Assembly: GCA_965197585.1 (NCBI GenBank)
Contig: OZ240215.1
Coordinates: 2,464,001-2,528,000 of the forward strand
Direction of reading: 5' to 3'
Length of the DNA: 64,000 bases
Source: Dehalococcoidia bacterium
Lineage (GTDB): Bacteria; Chloroflexota; Dehalococcoidia; Plut-88900
Shown in pieces: positions 2,370 to 64,000 of this stretch. The notes under the pieces were generated by a model. It had not been told where the DNA came from. It saw only the letters and a list, made by a program, of their open reading frames with translations, and ran no database searches. Numbering within the stretch: position 1 is the first letter of the stretch; every line of letters begins with the position of its first letter. Both the position numbers and the translations under genes were made by a program.

Positions 2370-3110
2370 CAAATGTGACACGAACCCCTTGACCAAAGCA
2401 AAACACTTGTGCTATATTCTCCCCTGAATGGCCAATCACTCACCCTAACCACCAAGGAGGAACCAAAAACTAGGGAAGCCCACCCGACCCCACCCGAGGA
2501 CTCAACGTCTCAGCCCATCCCAACGGCCCTCGCGCAGGCCCACGGCTCAAGCGAAAGTCGCCATCTCCTCAACCATCGGGTCCCGTGTACCCTTCCCCCT
2601 TCCCTGACCCCCAGGCGATGGAAGACGCCCTGGACCGTACTTAAAAGTCTCCTCATGGAGCAACCTTGTCCCATGGAGCGGAACGGGGCGGCCCGTAGCC
2701 GAGGCCCCCTCGGCTCTCCGTCCGCTTCCTCAAATAAAACTGGACTGTCCGCCACTCCCGGCTCCTGGATACAGGCGGCTAACTGGATACCCCGTACTCC
2801 TGCGAGGGGAACTGACCCTGGACTTTCCCCTTCCTGCACCCGCCTACGGCGGACAGCGCAGCCAACCCTCATTGGAGCCTATGACGGATGACGGACCCGT
2901 ACGTCCGACCATACTTCCAGGTCTAGGCGGCGGCGGAGACCCGTCCCACGCTCCCGGGACGCCTCCTAGCCCGCATTATCTAAATGTAGGCAGCCGAATC
3001 CAGCAAGCGTCTTTCATCGCCTTCCCACCAACAAACGACATACCAAACAAGACCCCACAATCGAAGATGGAACATCCGCCTTGGGCGGGTCCGCCTCAAG
3101 AGGACCGAAT
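2370..3110 (+). ncRNA. Putative large structured ncRNA element, copy A (promoter + conserved scaffold + variable cargo + conserved tail)
   Basis: Shares promoter, ~200-nt 5' region and 3' tail with 18160-18930(-) and 62793-63460(+). Arms 2613-2628 and 3007-3022 pair (16 bp, one G-U). Confidence 0.65.
2389..2418 (+). promoter_or_regulatory. sigma70-type promoter TTGACC-N18-TATATT with extended -10 TG
   Basis: Same -35 hexamer and spacing in copies B (-10 TATTCT) and C (-10 TACTAT). Confidence 0.65.
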
Positions 3111-3115
3111 ACCCC

Positions 3116-7512: not shown

Positions 7513-7538
7513 CTCATCTTCTCCTATCCTTCGGAATC

Positions 7539-7575
7539 CCCTCTCCCTTGACTGGAGAGGGCTAGGGTGAGGGTG
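7539..7575. repeat. CCCTCTCCC-loop-GGGAGAGGG(CTAGGGTGAGGG) palindromic intergenic repeat family
   Basis: Further copies at about 8698, 16823, 25678, 44487, 45463, 59521 and 61259, mostly at gene ends. Confidence 0.8.
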
Positions 7576-7587
7576 ACCCCCTCCCCC

Positions 7588-10100: not shown

Positions 10101-10289
10101 TCTTCCTTCTCCATTCCAAAACTCTTTTTACCTGTCATTCCGAGGCCCCGCGAGGAATCTAGGACTTGCCCACTCACCTTCCTCCTTAAAGCACCTGGGG
10201 CAGGGAGAATCCGCTCACCCTGTCGCAGATCCGCCGAGGCGGGAGCCAAGTCGAAGGGTCGAGCGGATTCCGGGTGGGGGCCTCTCCCC

Positions 10290-16937: not shown

Positions 16938-18068
16938 CTACATTGCCAGGTTGTACAGCTGTAGCGCGTTCCCCCCAAACACCATCTGCTGGTCTTCTTC
17001 CGGCAGGTCGGCGAGGTTCTTTTCCAGCTCATTAACCGGGTCGAGAATAGAGTCGGAGTGGGGGAAGTCGTAGGCCCACATGAACCTGTCGGCGCCCAGG
17101 ACCTCGATGCTGAACTTGGCGAGGCGCTCATCCGGGTCCATGGATATGAAGCACTGGCGCTTGAAGTAGGTGCTTGGTATCTCCTTCATGGGGGTGGTGA
17201 AGCCGTTGACCTCGAACTTTTCGTCCATCCGGTCAAGCCACCAGACGAGCCATCCTATCCCCGACTCCAGAATCACCAGATTCAGGTCCGGGAACCTGTC
17301 GAAAGTGCCGTGGTTGAAGAAGCTGCTGAAGTTCAGCTTTACGGTCTCGCCGCCATAGAGGAAGACCCACCAAGTAGTGAGGTCCTCGACGTTGGGGTAG
17401 GCCACCGCCGAGACCGAATTGCGCCCGGTGGCAGGGTGAATGGTCATGGGCATGTCCAGCGCCTCGGCTTCCGCCCACAGGGGGTCGAAGTACGGGTGCC
17501 CGTAGGGCCTTCCGGGTTCGCAATCGGAGCCCATCATCATTGCCTTGGCCCCAAGGGCCGCCGTTCTCTTCATTTCCTTGATCGCCTCGTCGACGTCGGC
17601 CATCGGGATGTGGGCCACGGGGACGAGGCGCGTCGGGGCTCCGCTGCAGAAGTCGAACACCCAGTCGTTGTATGCCCGACAGTTGGCCGCCGCAACTTTC
17701 ACGTCGTCGCAGTCGTATTCCCAGACCAGGCCGAGGGAGGGGTATACGAGGGTCATGTCTATGCGCTCGTCGTCCATCACCTTGGCCCTCTCGGAGCCGA
17801 TGTAGCCTCCGGGGACCATCGCGTCGTCCCAGGAGATGCGGCCGGGCTCCAGGTAGGGCCTCACGTCTTTGCCGATCGCGCCCAGGGCCCCGAAAGCCCC
17901 GTCCCTCGCCAAGAAAGCCTTGTTGCCGTCGACGTTCACGTACTCAAGCCCGTTTTCGTCTTTGGATATTTTGATGGCGTGGTCACGGTACTCGGGGTCG
18001 ATATAGTCCTGCCACAAGTTTGCGGGTTCCGTGATGTGGCCGTCTATGTCCACGAATGTAGCGCTCAT
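16938..18068 (-). CDS. Amidohydrolase_2 family protein (close tandem paralog of 15526-16656)
   Basis: Start at MSATFVDIDGH with the same AAGGAGACAGGA leader as the neighbouring copy. Confidence 0.92.
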   Translation of the reverse strand: MSATFVDIDGHITEPANLWQDYIDPEYRDHAIKISKDENGLEYVNVDGNKAFLARDGAFGALGAIGKDVRPYLEPGRISWDDAMVPGGYIGSERAKVMDDERIDMTLVYPSLGLVWEYDCDDVKVAAANCRAYNDWVFDFCSGAPTRLVPVAHIPMADVDEAIKEMKRTAALGAKAMMMGSDCEPGRPYGHPYFDPLWAEAEALDMPMTIHPATGRNSVSAVAYPNVEDLTTWWVFLYGGETVKLNFSSFFNHGTFDRFPDLNLVILESGIGWLVWWLDRMDEKFEVNGFTTPMKEIPSTYFKRQCFISMDPDERLAKFSIEVLGADRFMWAYDFPHSDSILDPVNELEKNLADLPEEDQQMVFGGNALQLYNLAM

Positions 18069-18159
18069 GTCCTGTCTCCTTTGACTAGAATGCGCCTGAC
18101 GATCGGGGGGAATGTTACCCCACGTCCACGGTGGGTACAATGAGGGAGATGGGGCGGTT

Positions 18160-18930
18160 ATTCAGTTGGAGTGGGGTTTCGGGTCTTGTTCTGTCTGTTG
18201 GGAAGGGGTTGGCGATGGAAGACGCCCTCTTGCCCTCAAATTGGCTTGCACTCTTCATTACGGGTGTTCCGGCTGTTGGGGGACCTTTAGAGCAGGCCCC
18301 GCCTGAGAGGGAGGGACTTGCAGCCGGCCGTGCCTTTTTGCTCGATTATATACACGGACCATTCCGGGTCAGGACGTCCGTCAGAGGCTCCTACTATTGT
18401 TTTCGGGGCTGTATGCCGCTATGGGCACGACGGGGCCAGTGATCCAGCTGTGGCCCCACAGCCTAACTAATGATTTTCAGTTTGCCGGAGCCCTGAGGAG
18501 CCCAGTCTCCGGCGCCCCCGCGCACAATGCGCATTAGTAGCAGGAGCAGACCTATTTGGAGATGGTTCTCCGTCGGGGGCACATGGTCCGCTGCATACCT
18601 CCTTAATTATCACCCCCGCTGCTAAACTCCCGGTGTAGGGAGAGGGGTGGGAGTAAAAGCCAGGGCGTCTTTCCATCGCCTGCGGATCAGGGAAGGGGCA
18701 CGGGACCCGGTGGTGAGGAGATGGCGGTCCTCCATAGGCGGATGTTCCACTTTCGCTTGAGCCGCGGGCCTGCGCGAGGGCCGTTGGGATGGGCTTGGAC
18801 GTTGAGTCCTCTGGTGGGTCGGGTGGGCTTCCCTGGGTTTTTGGTTCCTCCTTGAGATAGTTAGGTTGGTGTTCGAACGGGGAGGAGAATAGCACGAGTG
18901 TTCGGGTTGGGTCAAGGGGTTCGTGTCACA
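18160..18930 (-). ncRNA. Putative large structured ncRNA element, copy B
   Basis: Reverse-complement homolog of the copy A/C promoter, scaffold and tail; arms 18211-18228 and 18662-18680 pair. Confidence 0.65.
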
Positions 18931-18942
18931 CTTGGGGAGACA

Positions 18943-19322
18943 CCGCCCCAGCCCCACCGGGGAACCCTCACCCCCTTTATCCCCCTCTCCCTTAGGGCCT
19001 TCAAGGGAGAGGGGGAGATAAGAACAGAGGGAGACGTTGGCGCGTCTGCGCCAACGTCTCCCTCTAGTTCAGTACTGGGGGGGAAGGGGGATGGATTCCC
19101 GATCGGGGTCGGGAATGACGGGAGGGGGGCAGGACGTCCCACCCCAGATTCCTCGCGGGGCATCGGAATGACACGGGAGAAAGGGGATCCGCCCCAGCCC
19201 CACCGGGGAACCCTCACCCCCTTGGTCCCCCTCTCCCTTAGGGCCTTTAAGGGAGAGGGGGAAATAAGAATAGAGGCCCACGTGCGTGCTCTGCACGCAC
19301 GTGGGCCTCTAATTCAGTACTG
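18943..19322 (-). repeat. Two tandem ~140-bp composite palindromic repeats (third copy 62624-62785)
   Basis: Shared flanks AGTACTGAAYTAGAGG...CCTCTRTTCTTATYTCCCCCTCTCCCTT...GGGAGAGGGGG...GGGGCTGGGGCGG around perfect hairpins. Confidence 0.75.
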
Positions 19323-19387: not shown

Positions 19388-20442
19388 TGTAAGTGTTAGG
19401 TAATTCGTTGACAGATTGGTATAAGAGGCCAACACCAATCTGGAGGCGAAAATGCGAGACAACAGCAAGGACCTCACCCTTGAAAGGAACTACATTCAGA
19501 AGTGGCGATTCCTCATACAGGAATACCGATTGGTCAAGGCCAGGAAGCATCCCCGCTTCCGCTTTGCCCAAGACTTCTATGCCTTCCACGGCACTACACG
19601 TCAGACCTTTGCCAAGTACTACAACCGGTTCCTCCTCTCCCCCTCCGACGACTCCTTCTTCCCCCGTAAGCGGGGCCCAATTGGAAGAGCCGCCGTACCC
19701 TGCCCTACATAGAGCAGAAGGTTCTCAGCGAATGCTTCAACGGTACCAATCGCTACGAGATATATGCCATACTCAAGCCCATCCTCAAACAGCACACCCC
19801 TAAGCCCTCTACCATCTACGCCATCACCAGACGCCACGGTGTTAATAGGCTCACAAAGCCGATGCAGCAATCGAAGCGCAAGATCATCAAGACCCGGGCA
19901 GGGGAGTTGGGGCACCTGGACAGCCACCACCTCAGCCGGGACCTCCTGGTAGACTCCAAGCGCCGTTACTACCTGGTAGCCCTCATCGACGCCTGCACCC
20001 GCTTGGCCTGGGCCGAAGTGGTCGGAGACATCAAGAGCCTTTCTGTGATGTTCGCAACCCTGAAATCCATCAACTTCCTTAATGCGGAGTACGGCATCAA
20101 ATTCGAGGCCATCCTCACCGACAATGGCCCTGAGATGGCCTCGCCCAGGAACATTGAGGGCCACCCCATGGAACGGATGCTCAATGAGCTGGGCATCAAG
20201 CACCGCTACACACGCCCTTATAGGCCCCAGACCAACGGGAAGATAGAGCGGTTCTGGAGAACCCTGAACGAGGACCTGCTGGAGGGGACCACCTTCGAGT
20301 CGGTGGCAGAGCTGCGGGACGAACTGCAGCAATATCTGCTCTACTACAATACCCAGAGACCCCACCAGGCAATGGACGGAAAGACCCCTTTGGAGACCCT
20401 TCAATCCCTCTAATTCTGTCAACGAATTATCTGACATTTACA
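19388..20442 (+). mobile_element. IS481-family insertion sequence
   Basis: 28-bp imperfect TIRs (TGTAAGTGTTAGGTAATTCGTTGACAGA vs reverse complement of right end TGTAAATGTCAGATAATTCGTTGACAGA), GGAAT duplicated on both sides, rve/DDE transposase inside. Confidence 0.88.
19452..20413 (+). pseudogene. IS481-family transposase split by a frameshift near 19680
   Basis: The N-terminal ORF (19452-19712) continues in the -1 frame (NWKSRRTLPYIEQKVL...) into the integrase core (HLD, TDNGPE, PQTNGKIERF, YNTQRPH). Confidence 0.82.
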
Positions 20443-25610: not shown

Positions 25611-25753
25611 CCCCCATCCCCTCTCCCTCCATCTCATCGCCTGGCCTTTTCGCAAGAGGTGGGGATGAAGTCCTGTCCCCTCTCCCTTGACGGGAGAGGG
25701 CTAGGGTGAGGGTGAATGAAAAGTAGACGCGCCTGAAATTAGGCGAACACGCA

Positions 25754-32495: not shown

Positions 32496-32752
32496 CAGAC
32501 AGTACCTCCCGTATGCTCTAAATTCCCGCCCGCACCGATACCATACCCCACAGCCCCAACCCTTTCCACCTGTTACTCCCCTCTTCATGGTCCACGGACA
32601 AAGGCCATCCCTTTCGACGTAGGGGCGGGTAGGATCGAAGGGCTGAACGTAAACCCCGAGTTCCCTCCCCCCACCCTTGCCCCACCCCCCACAACCGCGC
32701 TAAAATACCCCCACGCAATCAACGCCCGACAAACCTGTAAACGCGGTAACGG

Positions 32753-32850
32753 ACCTTTAATTCAGTCCCGAGAGGCTGGCAAGGAAAACAGGATTACCGC
32801 AGCCGATTTCGGCCTACACCCTTGCCGCCCCTTAGCAGGGGTATTTTTTT
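32753..32850 (+). promoter_or_regulatory. PyrR-binding loop and attenuator
   Basis: CCTTTAA..CAGTCCCGAGAGGCTG..AAGG matches the PyrR binding-loop pattern; CCTTGCC can pair with GGCAAGG; CCCCT-TAGC-AGGGG plus T-run terminator. Confidence 0.9.
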
Positions 32851-33433
32851 GACCGACACCGTCCTAATGTCCCCCGCCGACATCGGCAAGTCCCTCCGCC
32901 GTGTTTCCCATGAGCTCATAGAGGCCCATCCAGACACCTCTCACCTTCTTCTGATCGGCATCCGCACCCGTGGCCTCCCCCTCGCCCAGCGCATCACCCG
33001 CAATATTGCCTCCGGCGGCAATGGCCGGATCCCTGTCGCCGCCCTGGACACGACTCCCTACCGCGATGACCGGATCACCCCCGCTCAGCCTGCCAACGGC
33101 ACAGGCTCGCCCATACCCGGCGGCGTCACCGATCGCGACGTAGTCCTCGTCGACGACGTCCTCTTTACCGGACGCACCATCCGGGCAGCACTCGATGCCC
33201 TCGTCAATCTCGGGAGACCCCGCTCCGTTCAACTCCTCGTTCTCGTCGACAGAGGCCACCGCGAGCTCCCCATCCGCGCCGACTACGTGGGCAAGAATAT
33301 ACCCACTTCTCTCACTCAGACCGTCAAGGTCCGCCTCGAAGAGATGGATGGCAGAGATGAGGTCGTGCTACTGGGCGATGCTGTTTCTACACAAGGCCGA
33401 GCCCGCGTCGCCGGAGGTCTCAAACTCACATGA
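32849..33433 (+). CDS. pyrR: Pyrimidine operon regulator / uracil phosphoribosyltransferase
   Basis: GIRTRG, YRDD, VLVDDVLFTGRT, DRGHRELPIRADYVG; start TTG 32849 or ATG 32867. Confidence 0.93.
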   Translation: MTDTVLMSPADIGKSLRRVSHELIEAHPDTSHLLLIGIRTRGLPLAQRITRNIASGGNGRIPVAALDTTPYRDDRITPAQPANGTGSPIPGGVTDRDVVLVDDVLFTGRTIRAALDALVNLGRPRSVQLLVLVDRGHRELPIRADYVGKNIPTSLTQTVKVRLEEMDGRDEVVLLGDAVSTQGRARVAGGLKLT

Positions 33434-44374: not shown

Positions 44375-44569
44375 CAGCCTACACCATCCACGCAGAATGA
44401 ACGAAGGCGTGACCCCCGCTCCCTCTCCCTCGATGACGCCGCCTCTGCACAACCGCCATTCCCGGCGGCTGGGGGGAGGTCCAGTCCCCTCTCCCTTGAT
44501 GGGAGAGGGCTAGGGTGAGGGTGAGAATGGTCCGAGTCCCCCCACGCATCCCGTTTCCACTCGGCGCTC

Positions 44570-58160: not shown

Positions 58161-58251
58161 CCCCACCGTTATTCCCCACCCCGATCGTGAATCCATCTCG
58201 CGTGAAACGGGATGGGGCCGTAGACTCGCTGAGGCAAGTGACATCACCCCC

Positions 58252-58281
58252 TTGACCTAACTTGTACACTTGTACTATATT
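58252..58281 (+). promoter_or_regulatory. Promoter TTGACC-N18-TATATT with a GTAC-ACTT-GTAC palindrome in the spacer
   Basis: Same architecture as the promoter of the three ncRNA-like elements. Confidence 0.5.
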
Positions 58282-58365
58282 CATATTCAAATGCCCACCC
58301 ATTTTCACTTTCCCACCACCCCCTCCCGGACACGGCAAAAAACTTTTTCTCCCTTCCAGGCGTCA

Positions 58366-58480
58366 TTCAATCAAACTAGCTACGAATTCAATCACCCTTC
58401 AATCTAGTCCAATCAATCTTCAATCAAGTTCAATCGGCTTTCAATCTAGTCCAATCAACCTCCAATCAAGACCAATCAAT
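58366..58480. repeat. 21-bp-period tandem repeat with CAATC every 10/11 bp
   Basis: CAATC at 58368, 58389, 58400, 58410, 58421, 58431, 58442, 58452, 58463 and 58473. Confidence 0.85.
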
Positions 58481-62521: not shown

Positions 62522-62623
62522 TCTTCCTCCACCTATCCCTAATACTGCCCATTCTACCCCACCCCCCCACCCCCTCCGTCATTCCAGCCGCCGAGAGCCG
62601 AAATCCATCCCGTCTCCCTTCTA

Positions 62624-62785
62624 CCCAGTACTGAACTAGAGGCCCGCACGGGTGCTGTGCACCCGTGCGGGCCTCTGTTCTTATCTCCCCCTCTCCCTTG
62701 AAGGCCCTAAGGGTCGAAGATGCGCCTATGGCGTGAGAGGGGGATCAAGGGGGTGAGGGTTCCCCTGTGGGGCTGGGGCGGTGTC
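62624..62785 (+). repeat. Composite palindromic repeat, third copy
   Basis: Homologous to 18943-19082 and 19189-19322; directly upstream of ncRNA-like copy C. Confidence 0.75.
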
Positions 62786-62792
62786 CCCAAAA

Positions 62793-63460
62793 GTGTGACA
62801 CGAACCCCTTGACCCTACCCAAACATACGTGCTACTATCCTCACCGTTCGAACACCAACCTAACTTACCCAAGGAGGAACCAAAAACCCAGGGAAGCCCA
62901 CCCGACCCACCCGAGGACTCAACGTCCAAGCCCATCCCAAAGGCCCTCGCTCAGGCCCGCGGCTCAAGCTGGAACATCCGCCTCAGGCGGGAAACGACGC
63001 CATCTCCTCCTCCCACGGGCCCGGCTCACCCTTCCCCCTACTTCCAGGCGATGGAAGGTCCACAATACTAAACGGCATGTCCCTTGCAAAGGACCCCTGC
63101 CGGAATAGCCCCGCTCACGCCGGGCTAAAACACTCGGGCCTCACGGCCCTTGGAAAATCTCCCCCGTCGTTCCCTTCGGAGATCCCCATACACCCAGCGA
63201 CGGCAGCGAGAAAACGCTCGCCATCCCTCCGAGTGGCCTAGAGAAGTCTGGTGGTAGAGGCAGCCCCGAGGCGAGGACCCCTCGCTTCTCTACCACGTCA
63301 TTACAGAAACACGAGGCTGAACCAGGCTGGCCTCCCGCCCCCTGAATCCGAGTCCAGGACCTTCCATCGCCTGCCCCCTCCCAAACCAAACAGAACAAAC
63401 CGAAACCCCACAATCGAAGATGGAACATCCGCCTCTGGAGGATCCGCCTCTGGAGGACTG
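62793..63460 (+). ncRNA. Putative large structured ncRNA element, copy C
   Basis: Perfect 17-bp arms 63045-63061 and 63357-63373 with compensatory changes relative to copies A and B. Confidence 0.65.
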
Positions 63461-63576
63461 AAGAAAAACCCGGTGTGTCACCAACCTACCGGATCGGTAC
63501 GGTTCGTTGACCCGACATTTACCCCAAATGTATACTCGAATTCATCTGAGGCCCCGCTTTTATCAGGAGGAATATC

Positions 63577-64000
63577 ATGACCCGTTCCATCGTAATCGAC
63601 GCCGACAGCCACATCATGGAACCGCCCACCTTGTGGCAGGAGTACATGGACCCCGAGTTCCGTAGCCGGGCCCTGCGAATCAGTGCGGATGAATTCGGCT
63701 TGGAGTATCTCGACATCGATGGCAAGGTCAGCATCGGGTACAACGGGGGCACCCTGGGCAGGATTGCGGGCGTCGACCAGACCCGGCAGTGGATGATGGA
63801 GCATCCCACCCTCCCCTATGACGAGATCAAGAACTTCGCCCCGGGATCCGTAGACCCCCACGCTCGGATCAAACACCTGGATAGGCACGGTGTCGACAAG
63901 ACCTTCCTCTTCCCGACCCTCGGCCTCGGTTGGGAAGCCGAGTGCGAAGACCCTGCACTTTCCGCCGCCTATTGCACCGCCTACAACCGCTGGCTTGTCG
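63577..64000 (+). CDS. Amidohydrolase_2 family protein, runs off the window end
   Basis: Not in ORF track. AGGAGG RBS then MTRSIVIDADSHIMEPPTLWQEYMDPEFRSRALRI...GLEYLDIDG...FPTLGL...AYNRW. Confidence 0.9.
   Translation, partial: MTRSIVIDADSHIMEPPTLWQEYMDPEFRSRALRISADEFGLEYLDIDGKVSIGYNGGTLGRIAGVDQTRQWMMEHPTLPYDEIKNFAPGSVDPHARIKHLDRHGVDKTFLFPTLGLGWEAECEDPALSAAYCTAYNRWLV

Follow-up and report, generated by a model that had tools for sequence, protein, structure and literature searches.

The 64,000-nt stretch of DNA analysed here (contig OZ240215.1 of a Dehalococcoidia bacterium, positions 2,464,001 to 2,528,000; hereafter the window) contains three copies, A, B and C, of a repetitive element that a first-pass annotation had described as a multicopy, promoter-driven and structured non-coding unit. 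This description is supported, and 57 copies were found genome-wide. The annotation had also named ends of insertion sequences (ISs) as an observation that would speak against its RNA family. Such IS-like ends, together with target-site duplications, were indeed found, and they indicate that the unit is a transposon. We consider it probable that the element is a non-autonomous DNA transposon, similar to MITEs (miniature transposable elements with inverted repeats) but with a size of 0.73-0.9 kb. The view that it is mobile DNA, and that it forms a real, abundant and genus-restricted family, is well supported, and the existence of a structured RNA is likely.

The copies were counted by a blastn search of the 3.43-Mb single-contig genome with the promoter and the 5' domain of the element, which gave 64 high-scoring segment pairs, 57 of them including the 5' domain. 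The copies are 73-91% identical, with invariant blocks alternating with variable stretches (in alignments of 57 and 74 copies). In a DNA search of 41 genomes, the 5' domain was found in all eight congeneric Dehalococcoidia metagenome-assembled genomes, each with 51-88 first-look candidates, which in genomes of 3-4 Mb are not to be read as copy numbers. It was found in none of the three other genera of the family and in none of the 29 other genomes of the class; this range holds for the genomes searched and is not a proof of absence elsewhere. A scan of genome contigs revealed at least 92 stretches and, among the matches listed, all were from the same eight congeners. The pattern scan of IMG/VR gave no stretch, and blastn against phage records gave no match. 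In line with the earlier statement that no known RNA family is recognizable, Rfam 15 (4227 models) had no match at the gathering score in the window, and at E<=1 there were five weak window matches, none of them in the elements.

The complete copies are 734-885 bp long, or 1029-2076 bp if they carry nested insertions of ISs or repetitive extragenic palindromes (REPs). They are bounded by imperfect terminal inverted repeats (TIRs) of about 30 bp, TGATCCCGTTCAC... and ...GAACGAGTACA, with TG...CA termini (aligned by eye). A complete copy starts with TGATCCCGTTCACATAGAGGGGTGACA and ends with TGTCAC...CTACCGAACGAGTACA, the reverse complement of the right end being TGTACTCGTTCGGTAGATTAGTGACAC. The five bases left of TGATCC were compared with the five right of GTACA in 23 distinct complete copies, 16 in this genome and 7 from loci of congeners, which correspond to roughly 20 independent events since some of them are orthologous between genomes. 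All five bases were identical in 11 of the 23 and four of five in another 8, while re-paired controls gave 0.4% and 2.8%, respectively. The positions that follow the duplication give TTGAC, with T in 19 of the 23 copies, T in 17, G in 20, A in 15 and C in 14.

Filled and empty sites were compared by mapping the flanks of 80 element-bearing loci of congeners, 8 kb each, onto this genome (G000). The cleanest pair consists of a filled site in the congener G001 (locus L059), which reads ...ATGC TTTCG | TGATCTCGTTCAGATAGAG...element...CCGAACGAGTGCA | TTTCG TTGACAGCC, and the empty site at G000:2383888-2384287, which reads ...GTGC TTTCG TTGACAGCTCC and has one TTTCG, followed by TTGACA-17-TAAGAT. 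Two TTTCG in G001 against one in G000 reveal a 5-bp duplication and an element inserted directly 5' of the native promoter TTGACA-17-TAAGAT. More empty sites in G000 face filled ones in G005, G006 and G007, the pairs being less clean. At the locus orthologous to that of copy A, the element is present in two of the eight congeners, and the other six have other intergenic content. A 'second promoter' downstream had been considered as a part of the element; this was rejected, because the empty site shows that these -35 and -10 boxes belong to the host gene.

Not all copies have kept their ends. With up to three mismatches allowed, both ends are present in 15 of the 57 copies, the right end only in 9, the left end only in 1 and neither end in 32. 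We infer that the majority of the copies are immobile relics lacking one or both ends; this applies also to the three window copies, in which intact ends are lost. A solitary left end with the promoter-proximal part of the element was seen at G000:C1:3404961-3405150 (L158). It lies upstream of a CIRCE-like repeat, TTAGCACTC-N9-GAGTGCTAA, and of an open reading frame (ORF) for a GroES-like protein, the ORF being assigned by eye.

The orientation of the insertions is also strict. The downstream gene is co-oriented with the element in 23 of the 24 copies with a right end and in 45 of the 57 copies overall, and no called gene is overlapped by any of the 57, the calls being those of a custom, crude codon-usage caller. 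The 45 downstream genes comprise 8 of one amidohydrolase-2 family and 37 singletons. The 20 downstream proteins that were annotated belong to metabolic, transport or IS genes, among them MFS, FAD enzymes, a luciferase-like monooxygenase, deformylase, aminotransferase, SulP, UvrA and MetE. Such base-precise, -35-adjacent and gene-facing insertions imply a transposition machinery that reads promoters.

Two IS481-like ISs of this genome were considered as mobilisers, both with NCBIfam IS481 scores below the curated cut-off. The first, 1094 bp long and present in about 20 (19-21) copies, has the ends TGTAAGTGTTAGG... and inserts in the REP sequence GTCATTCC|GAGG, with ATTCC as its 5-bp duplication. 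It was rejected as mobiliser, since its ends and its REP target differ from those of the element. A diverged copy (about 90%) with an open rve frame of 247 aa is located at 19388-20437, just upstream of copy B, and thus the window is not free of recombinase genes as had been assumed. The second IS encodes a protein of 423 aa and is single-copy in the genome (G000:C1:659305-660635). It was found inserted twice in two species, namely in the element's own promoter in G000 and in the copy-A orthologue in G005 (L051). Both insertions have a 5-bp duplication immediately 5' of TTGAC, which is the same geometry as that of the element. By eye, its ends are unlike those of the element, so that it is no more than a candidate for the mobiliser. 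Its target geometry leads us to infer a related rve/DDE enzyme as the mobiliser. It is of interest in itself that promoter-adjacent targeting is shared, within these genomes, by an IS481-like element which looks unrelated. With the IS481 family the element shares TG...CA-type termini and short duplications; in contrast to it, the element encodes no transposase, and its TIRs resemble the ends of neither IS481-like IS of the genome (by eye). IS110-family and IS5-like elements are also present in this genome.

Within the element, a near-consensus sigma-70 promoter (P1) is located just inside the left end. It is followed by a 5' domain of about 190 nt, a stem of 14-24 bp closing a variable domain (the 'cargo') of 305-533 nt, and an A/C-rich tail. 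The three window copies with promoter, 5' domain, arms and tail were borne out by a repeat-pair search within the window, which gave the pairs 18755-18989 / 62735-62969 (235 nt, 92% identity), 2453-2558 / 18749-18854 (106 nt, 86%) and 2452-2552 / 62869-62969 (84%), and by a three-way alignment in which these four parts are conserved and the middle aligns poorly. The features of the copies are as follows (type i left end: left TIR missing).

Copy A (+ strand):
2375-2381, GTGACAC motif; type i left end, no left TIR within 3 mismatches
2389-2394 and 2413-2418, P1 with -35 box TTGACC and TG-extended -10 box TATATT; 10 of 12 consensus matches
2425..2613, conserved 5' domain with the blocks invariant across 57 and 74 copies
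2454-2461, block AAGGAGGA
2496-2507, block GAGGACTCAACG
2513-2523, block GCCCATCCCAA
2525-2540, hairpin of variable sequence, kept in 68 of 70 distinct variants
2559-2569, block CGCCATCTCCT
2614..2633, 5' arm of the closing stem, GGCGATGGAAGACGCCCTGG
2634..2999, type I variable domain, of a class of 10 copies in the cargo clustering
3000..3021, 3' arm of the closing stem, CCAGCAAGCGTCTTTCATCGCC
3022..3111, A/C-rich tail with small TCCGCC..GGAGGA hairpins; no right TIR

Copy B (- strand):
18158..18937, whole copy; type i left end, no TIRs, type I domain, tail to 18158
18915-18910 and 18891-18886, -35 and -10 boxes of P1
18680-18661 and 18227-18211, 5' and 3' arms

Copy C (+ strand):
62793..63501, whole copy; type i left end, 5' domain, type II domain and tail
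62809-62838, P1, TTGACC-18-TACTAT (promoter scan)
63047-63061 and 63357-63371, 5' and 3' arms
63470-63501, degenerate right TIR, assigned by eye against the right-end consensus; more than 3 mismatches
63502-63506, five bases at the position of the target duplication
63507-63512 and 63531-63536, TTGACC and TATACT (18-nt spacer), own promoter of the following gene, which has its ATG at 63577

The end of copy A at about 3111 is the point where homology with element-less congeners resumes, at CCCCTAC... One additional hairpin is inserted in the 5' domain of copy B, and the gene co-oriented with this copy, with its start at 18068, encodes an amidohydrolase-family protein that clusters with PF04909 proteins. 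The A/C-rich 3' tail that had been described is present, but in 24 of the 57 copies it is followed by the right TIR. The tails contain varying numbers of a unit of 15-35 nt, GGAACATCCGCC-loop-GGAGGA (3068-3105 and 63420-63460), which in copies B and C is also inserted within the 5' domain (18700-18760 and 62970-63000) and is likewise found within a second element family (family 2, see below). In its behaviour it resembles a small hairpin that is mobile or expandable. REP-like repeat families such as CCCCTCTCCCTTGAnGGGAGAGGGCTAGGGTGAGGGTGA and GTCATTCCGAGGCnCCGCGAGGAATC crowd the intergenic regions and often abut the left ends of the element. In the window, REP-like repeats are found at the following positions:
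7523-7576
10126-10186
18943-19283
25662-25715
44471-44524
62602-62781

The predicted promoter was recovered as consensus matches in copies A (2389-2418) and C (62809-62838); for copy A, TTGACC-18-TATATT with TG extension, the scan found one site against 0.2 expected. Promoters of the type GTGACAC-N7-TTGAC occur 66 times in the genome, 42 times at elements; the remaining sites precede a tRNA gene, a module with a gene similar to those of terminase large subunits (TerL-like; see below), protein genes and the second element family. No intrinsic terminator was found on the sense strand of copies A and C, the two copies scanned, and thus read-through from P1 into the downstream gene may be possible. 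On the antisense (-) strand, T-runs after short hairpins, arising from the conserved runs AACCAAAAAC and GAAGAAAAAC, look terminator-like (2475-2491, 62888-62905 and 63470-63484). Their counts are within the shuffle expectation, and their positions are conserved between copies.

The 600-700 nt downstream of P1 contain no conserved reading frame: anchoring at AAGGAGGA was possible for 49 of the 57 copies (but not for the other 8), and 47 of these 49 have stop codons in all three sense frames. The long-range stem postulated earlier is real and general, since both arms are present in 57 of 57 genomic copies, 305-533 nt apart. In 101 distinct arm pairs from nine genomes the duplex is 14-24 bp long, with a mean of 19.8. 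Ten copies were folded with sequences of roughly transcript length and 15-20 shuffles each. The z-score was lower on the sense than on the antisense strand in all ten, with sense values of -4.27, -6.28, -4.82, -8.28, -2.78, -0.87, -4.66, -1.24, -3.31 and -4.61 and, in the same order, antisense values of -0.43, -1.51, -2.75, -8.17, -1.0, +0.3, -3.4, +0.7, -2.2 and -1.64. Of 70 distinct sequence variants, 68 have retained the hairpin following GCCCATCCCAA, with 34 stem types, for example GGCC/GGCC, GGTCGC/GCGACC, GGGCGGC/GCCGCCC and GGGCAGC/GCTGCCC.

Positions 2424-3013 are covered, with summed word depths of up to 48-225, by contigs that stem from two studies and four metatranscriptome libraries, although for a multicopy family such contigs show neither strand nor ends nor level. 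In the same libraries the depth was 0-17 at the upstream and 0 at the downstream neighbour gene. Several cargo-specific pieces are present with 0-2 differences. This cover is consistent with transcription from P1. It is nearly nil over the tail (3022-3111) and the promoter, an observation which we did not use as evidence.

Several points weigh against the interpretation as a transposon carrying a structured RNA. Regarding mobility, no transposase gene bounded by element ends exists in this genome (G000), and with no cognate transposase gene found, mobility is deduced from footprints only. Further, only 15 of 57 copies have kept both ends and 32 have kept neither, the duplication cases are not all independent of each other, and the position relative to genes depends on the crude gene calls. 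Regarding the RNA, mismatches had been read as G-U pairs on the promoter-sense strand, which we could not substantiate: in the closing stem, G-U pairs favour neither strand, as the sense duplex is better in only 47 of 101 pairs and G-U accounts for only 56 of 1997 base pairs. For the internal hairpin, the antisense strand gives an equal or higher stability, and a sense-strand G-U bias is lacking here as well. Thus, the helices could act in DNA. In addition, the RNAalifold consensus of 74 5' domains aligned with MAFFT is weak (-10.2 kcal/mol, 17 pairs, one two-sided change), because hairpin variants of different length misalign, and carry-over of DNA into the RNA libraries is possible.

These data have to be weighed also for an explanation in which the RNA is the point, i.e. 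in which the element is a new large structured non-coding RNA that serves the cell or the element itself, and transposition merely its means of spread. Such an RNA could be a transposition or targeting factor, or it could be a sponge for ribosomes or for a protein via the invariant AAGGAGGA and CUCCU blocks. The blocks kept invariant amid variable stretches in 57 and 74 copies would fit this explanation, but they could also be DNA binding sites for a transposase or host factor, or reflect young age. The excess folding specific for the sense strand in ten of ten copies and the compensatory hairpin variants also speak for an RNA, whereas the helices tested are without strand asymmetry and the alifold consensus is weak. 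In line with it are also the promoter, whose type is found ahead of a tRNA gene, a cover by RNA libraries above that of the neighbouring genes, and the fact that the 32 copies without either end still have promoter and RNA. On the other side, the element is confined to one genus among the genomes searched and no partner protein was identified. Altogether, we regard this explanation as possible but doubtful, and prefer the non-autonomous DNA transposon. Still less probable appears to us a promoter-recognising transposon that inserts exactly 5 bp upstream of the -35 box in one orientation and has the RNA as a working part, either as a scaffold or guide for the transposase or as an insulating or leader RNA by which the strong promoter of the element is coupled to the captured gene. 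If true, large non-coding RNAs of bacteria would have a new class, one which is spread by transposition and originates partly from a fragment of a phage terminase gene.

The variable domain was said to differ in each copy. Unrelated versions of the middle do exist, but they are not unique to each copy: the 57 cargos form classes of 12, 10, 7, 6, 6, 6, 3 and 2 members plus 5 singletons. According to the arms there are two unrelated superclasses, type I with 37 copies, including A and B, which have motifs in common, and type II with 20 copies, including C. A part of the length variation is due to nested REP insertions. Type II cargos show homology to a segment of an open frame of 504 codons, a frame with weak PHROG matches to the terminase large subunit (E=8e-6) and with thousands of homologues in Dehalococcoidia, a few of them with PF17289. 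The similarity amounts to 77% over 227 nt in blastn, and to 65% over 78 aa and 47% over 125 aa in tblastn. It was detected in 9 of 20 type II cargos by blastn and in 6 of 20 by tblastn, copy C not being among them. The type II superclass descends from a terminase-large-subunit-like gene, of which it is a decayed fragment. The arms of the element are already present inside the intact TerL-like coding sequence, as 12-bp inverted arms. Two diverged stand-alone modules of this kind exist in the genome:
G000:C1:1117829-1119956 (L159), TerL-like module
G000:C1:2872274-2874405 (L160), TerL-like module

Each consists of a promoter of the same type, an ORF of about 140 aa and then the terminase-large-subunit-like ORF of about 460-500 aa. 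In L159 no portal or capsid gene comes next; a convergent frame of 335 aa follows.

For type I, no relative outside family 1, the element described here, was found with an nhmmer profile of 35 type I cargos or with blastn against phage records, and no relation to TerL or to any protein of this genome was detectable. The idea that type I is a diverged TerL fragment was dropped, since the profile matched nothing outside family 1. Antisense or captured host sequence was also dropped as origin of the cargos: when all 57 were compared to the genome by blastn, only the elements, family 2, TerL-like genes and short REP insertions matched.

Family 2 has the promoter and the arms in common with the element, and its start motif gave 17 hits in the genome. 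Its 5' part is different, starting with AAGGAG-N4-ATG and continuing with an Arg/Pro-rich frame, and it matches the nuclease part of the TerL-like protein (46% over 193 aa). The ATG frame is open over 220-366 codons in nine of nine copies examined, the other frames have 1-7 stops, and shuffled sequences were open in at most 1.2%. This long open frame suggests that family 2 is probably a coding, multicopy protein gene. The copies, all outside the window, are located on contig C1 of G000 at the following positions (L156, L157):
62860
505610
684518
1590859
2280200
3022084
3035253
3062928
3386770

Thus, the element could also be viewed as the decaying remnant of a promoter-driven TerL-like protein gene, represented by family 2, that was copied around, with the RNA as a by-product; the annotation had named a decayed protein-coding gene as an outcome contrary to its proposal. 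The match of type II cargos to the TerL-like gene, the promoter and arms shared with family 2, and the frame open in 9 of 9 family 2 copies as opposed to stops in all frames of family 1 are what such a decay would leave. For one superclass a decayed gene was thus found, but 37 of the 57 copies carry the type I cargo, which has no detectable relation to TerL or any protein of the genome, and for the conserved 5' domain there is no homologue among coding sequences. Moreover, decay leaves the invariant blocks, the TIRs, the target duplications and the fixed -35-adjacent position unexplained. Therefore, we consider this explanation unlikely.

A retron-like substrate for a reverse transcriptase (RT), an RNase III-excisable or circularising cargo, and an RNA-capturing cassette had been proposed. 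These proposals gained no support (no search for RT genes was made). The long inverted repeat closing the variable domain would fit an RT substrate or an excisable cargo. The same inverted repeat is already present within the intact TerL-like coding sequence, and the RNA contigs gave no joint, be it circular or skipping, that spans the stem, the only joints being skips of 73 and 86 nt inside the 5' domain in one run. We judge an RT substrate, retron-like or other, or a circularising or excisable cargo to be very improbable. In addition, P1 lies upstream of the transcript start and is nevertheless copied, which together with the DNA-transposon footprints argues against spread through an RNA intermediate.

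For the DNA transposon which we prefer, the following course of events can be proposed. The element would be moved, by means of a staggered 5-bp cut next to promoters, by a DDE transposase whose gene lies elsewhere and which is of the retroviral-integrase (rve) kind. After insertion, P1 would give rise to a structured RNA of roughly 600-700 nt and may read on into the co-oriented downstream gene, so that the element could serve this gene as a mobile promoter located upstream, with a leader that is long and structured.

MITEs are usually smaller than about 300-600 bp. The element has the TIRs, the target-site duplication and the presence/absence polymorphism of a MITE, but not the small size; with complete copies of 734-885 bp it deserves the name of a large rather than a miniature non-autonomous element. 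Large RNAs in Rfam such as OLE, GOLLD, ROOL, HEARO and raiA are several hundred nt long, have an ornate predicted structure and were of unknown function when first described. In contrast to our element, with 57 copies per genome, transposon footprints and no Rfam match, they are single- or low-copy. Promoter-bearing elements are known from Neisseria: as described in the review PMC10969869, Correia elements are non-autonomous MITEs with TIRs, present in more than 100 copies per genome, most of them immediately upstream of genes. Their sigma-70-like promoters are able to drive neighbouring genes, and RNase III cuts the RNA stems which are formed by their inverted repeats. Our element resembles them in being non-autonomous, TIR-bounded and multicopy, in its location upstream of genes and in its sigma-70-like promoter; it differs in size (734-885 bp versus about 100-200 bp for Correia). 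It further has a dedicated internal structured region of about 600 nt and one domain from a phage-type gene. The 5-bp duplication exactly 5' of TTGAC and the strict orientation are also features of the element; the target and duplication of Correia lie outside this comparison. The same review describes QMITE1 and QMITE2 of Coxiella as sources of the non-coding RNAs Cbsr3, Cbsr13 and Cbsr16, whose function is unknown (PMC10969869). There, small RNAs stem from small MITEs, while the presumed RNA of our element would be several hundred nt long, with conserved blocks and its own strong promoter. The closest kinds are the promoter-bearing MITEs (Correia) and the MITE-derived small RNAs (Coxiella). 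The distinguishing traits are the base-precise and oriented site at -35 boxes, the large structured and probably transcribed interior and the recycled terminase-like domain.

The element is of interest for several reasons. That most of the element's length is taken up by a promoter-driven, non-coding and foldable region with invariant blocks is unusual among non-autonomous transposons, and the type II domain is a traceable case of a coding sequence which became part of a non-coding repeat. With its copies upstream of metabolic genes of diverse kinds, the family may have an influence on gene expression throughout an uncultured lineage, which, according to the labels of the RNA runs only, is apparently sponge-associated. 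Last but not least, the element is a compact, testable system for promoter-targeted insertion.

Two further observations concern other parts of the window. At 32750-32851, a full-length Rfam match to a PyrR binding site stays below the threshold (47.1 bits versus a gathering score of 54, E=0.0025). Finally, the region 58238-58472, upstream of a gene for a protein of 327 aa, comprises another promoter of the type GTGACA-N7-TTGAC and, after it, five head-to-tail units of 21 nt resembling CAATCAAnCTAG... at 58368-58472.

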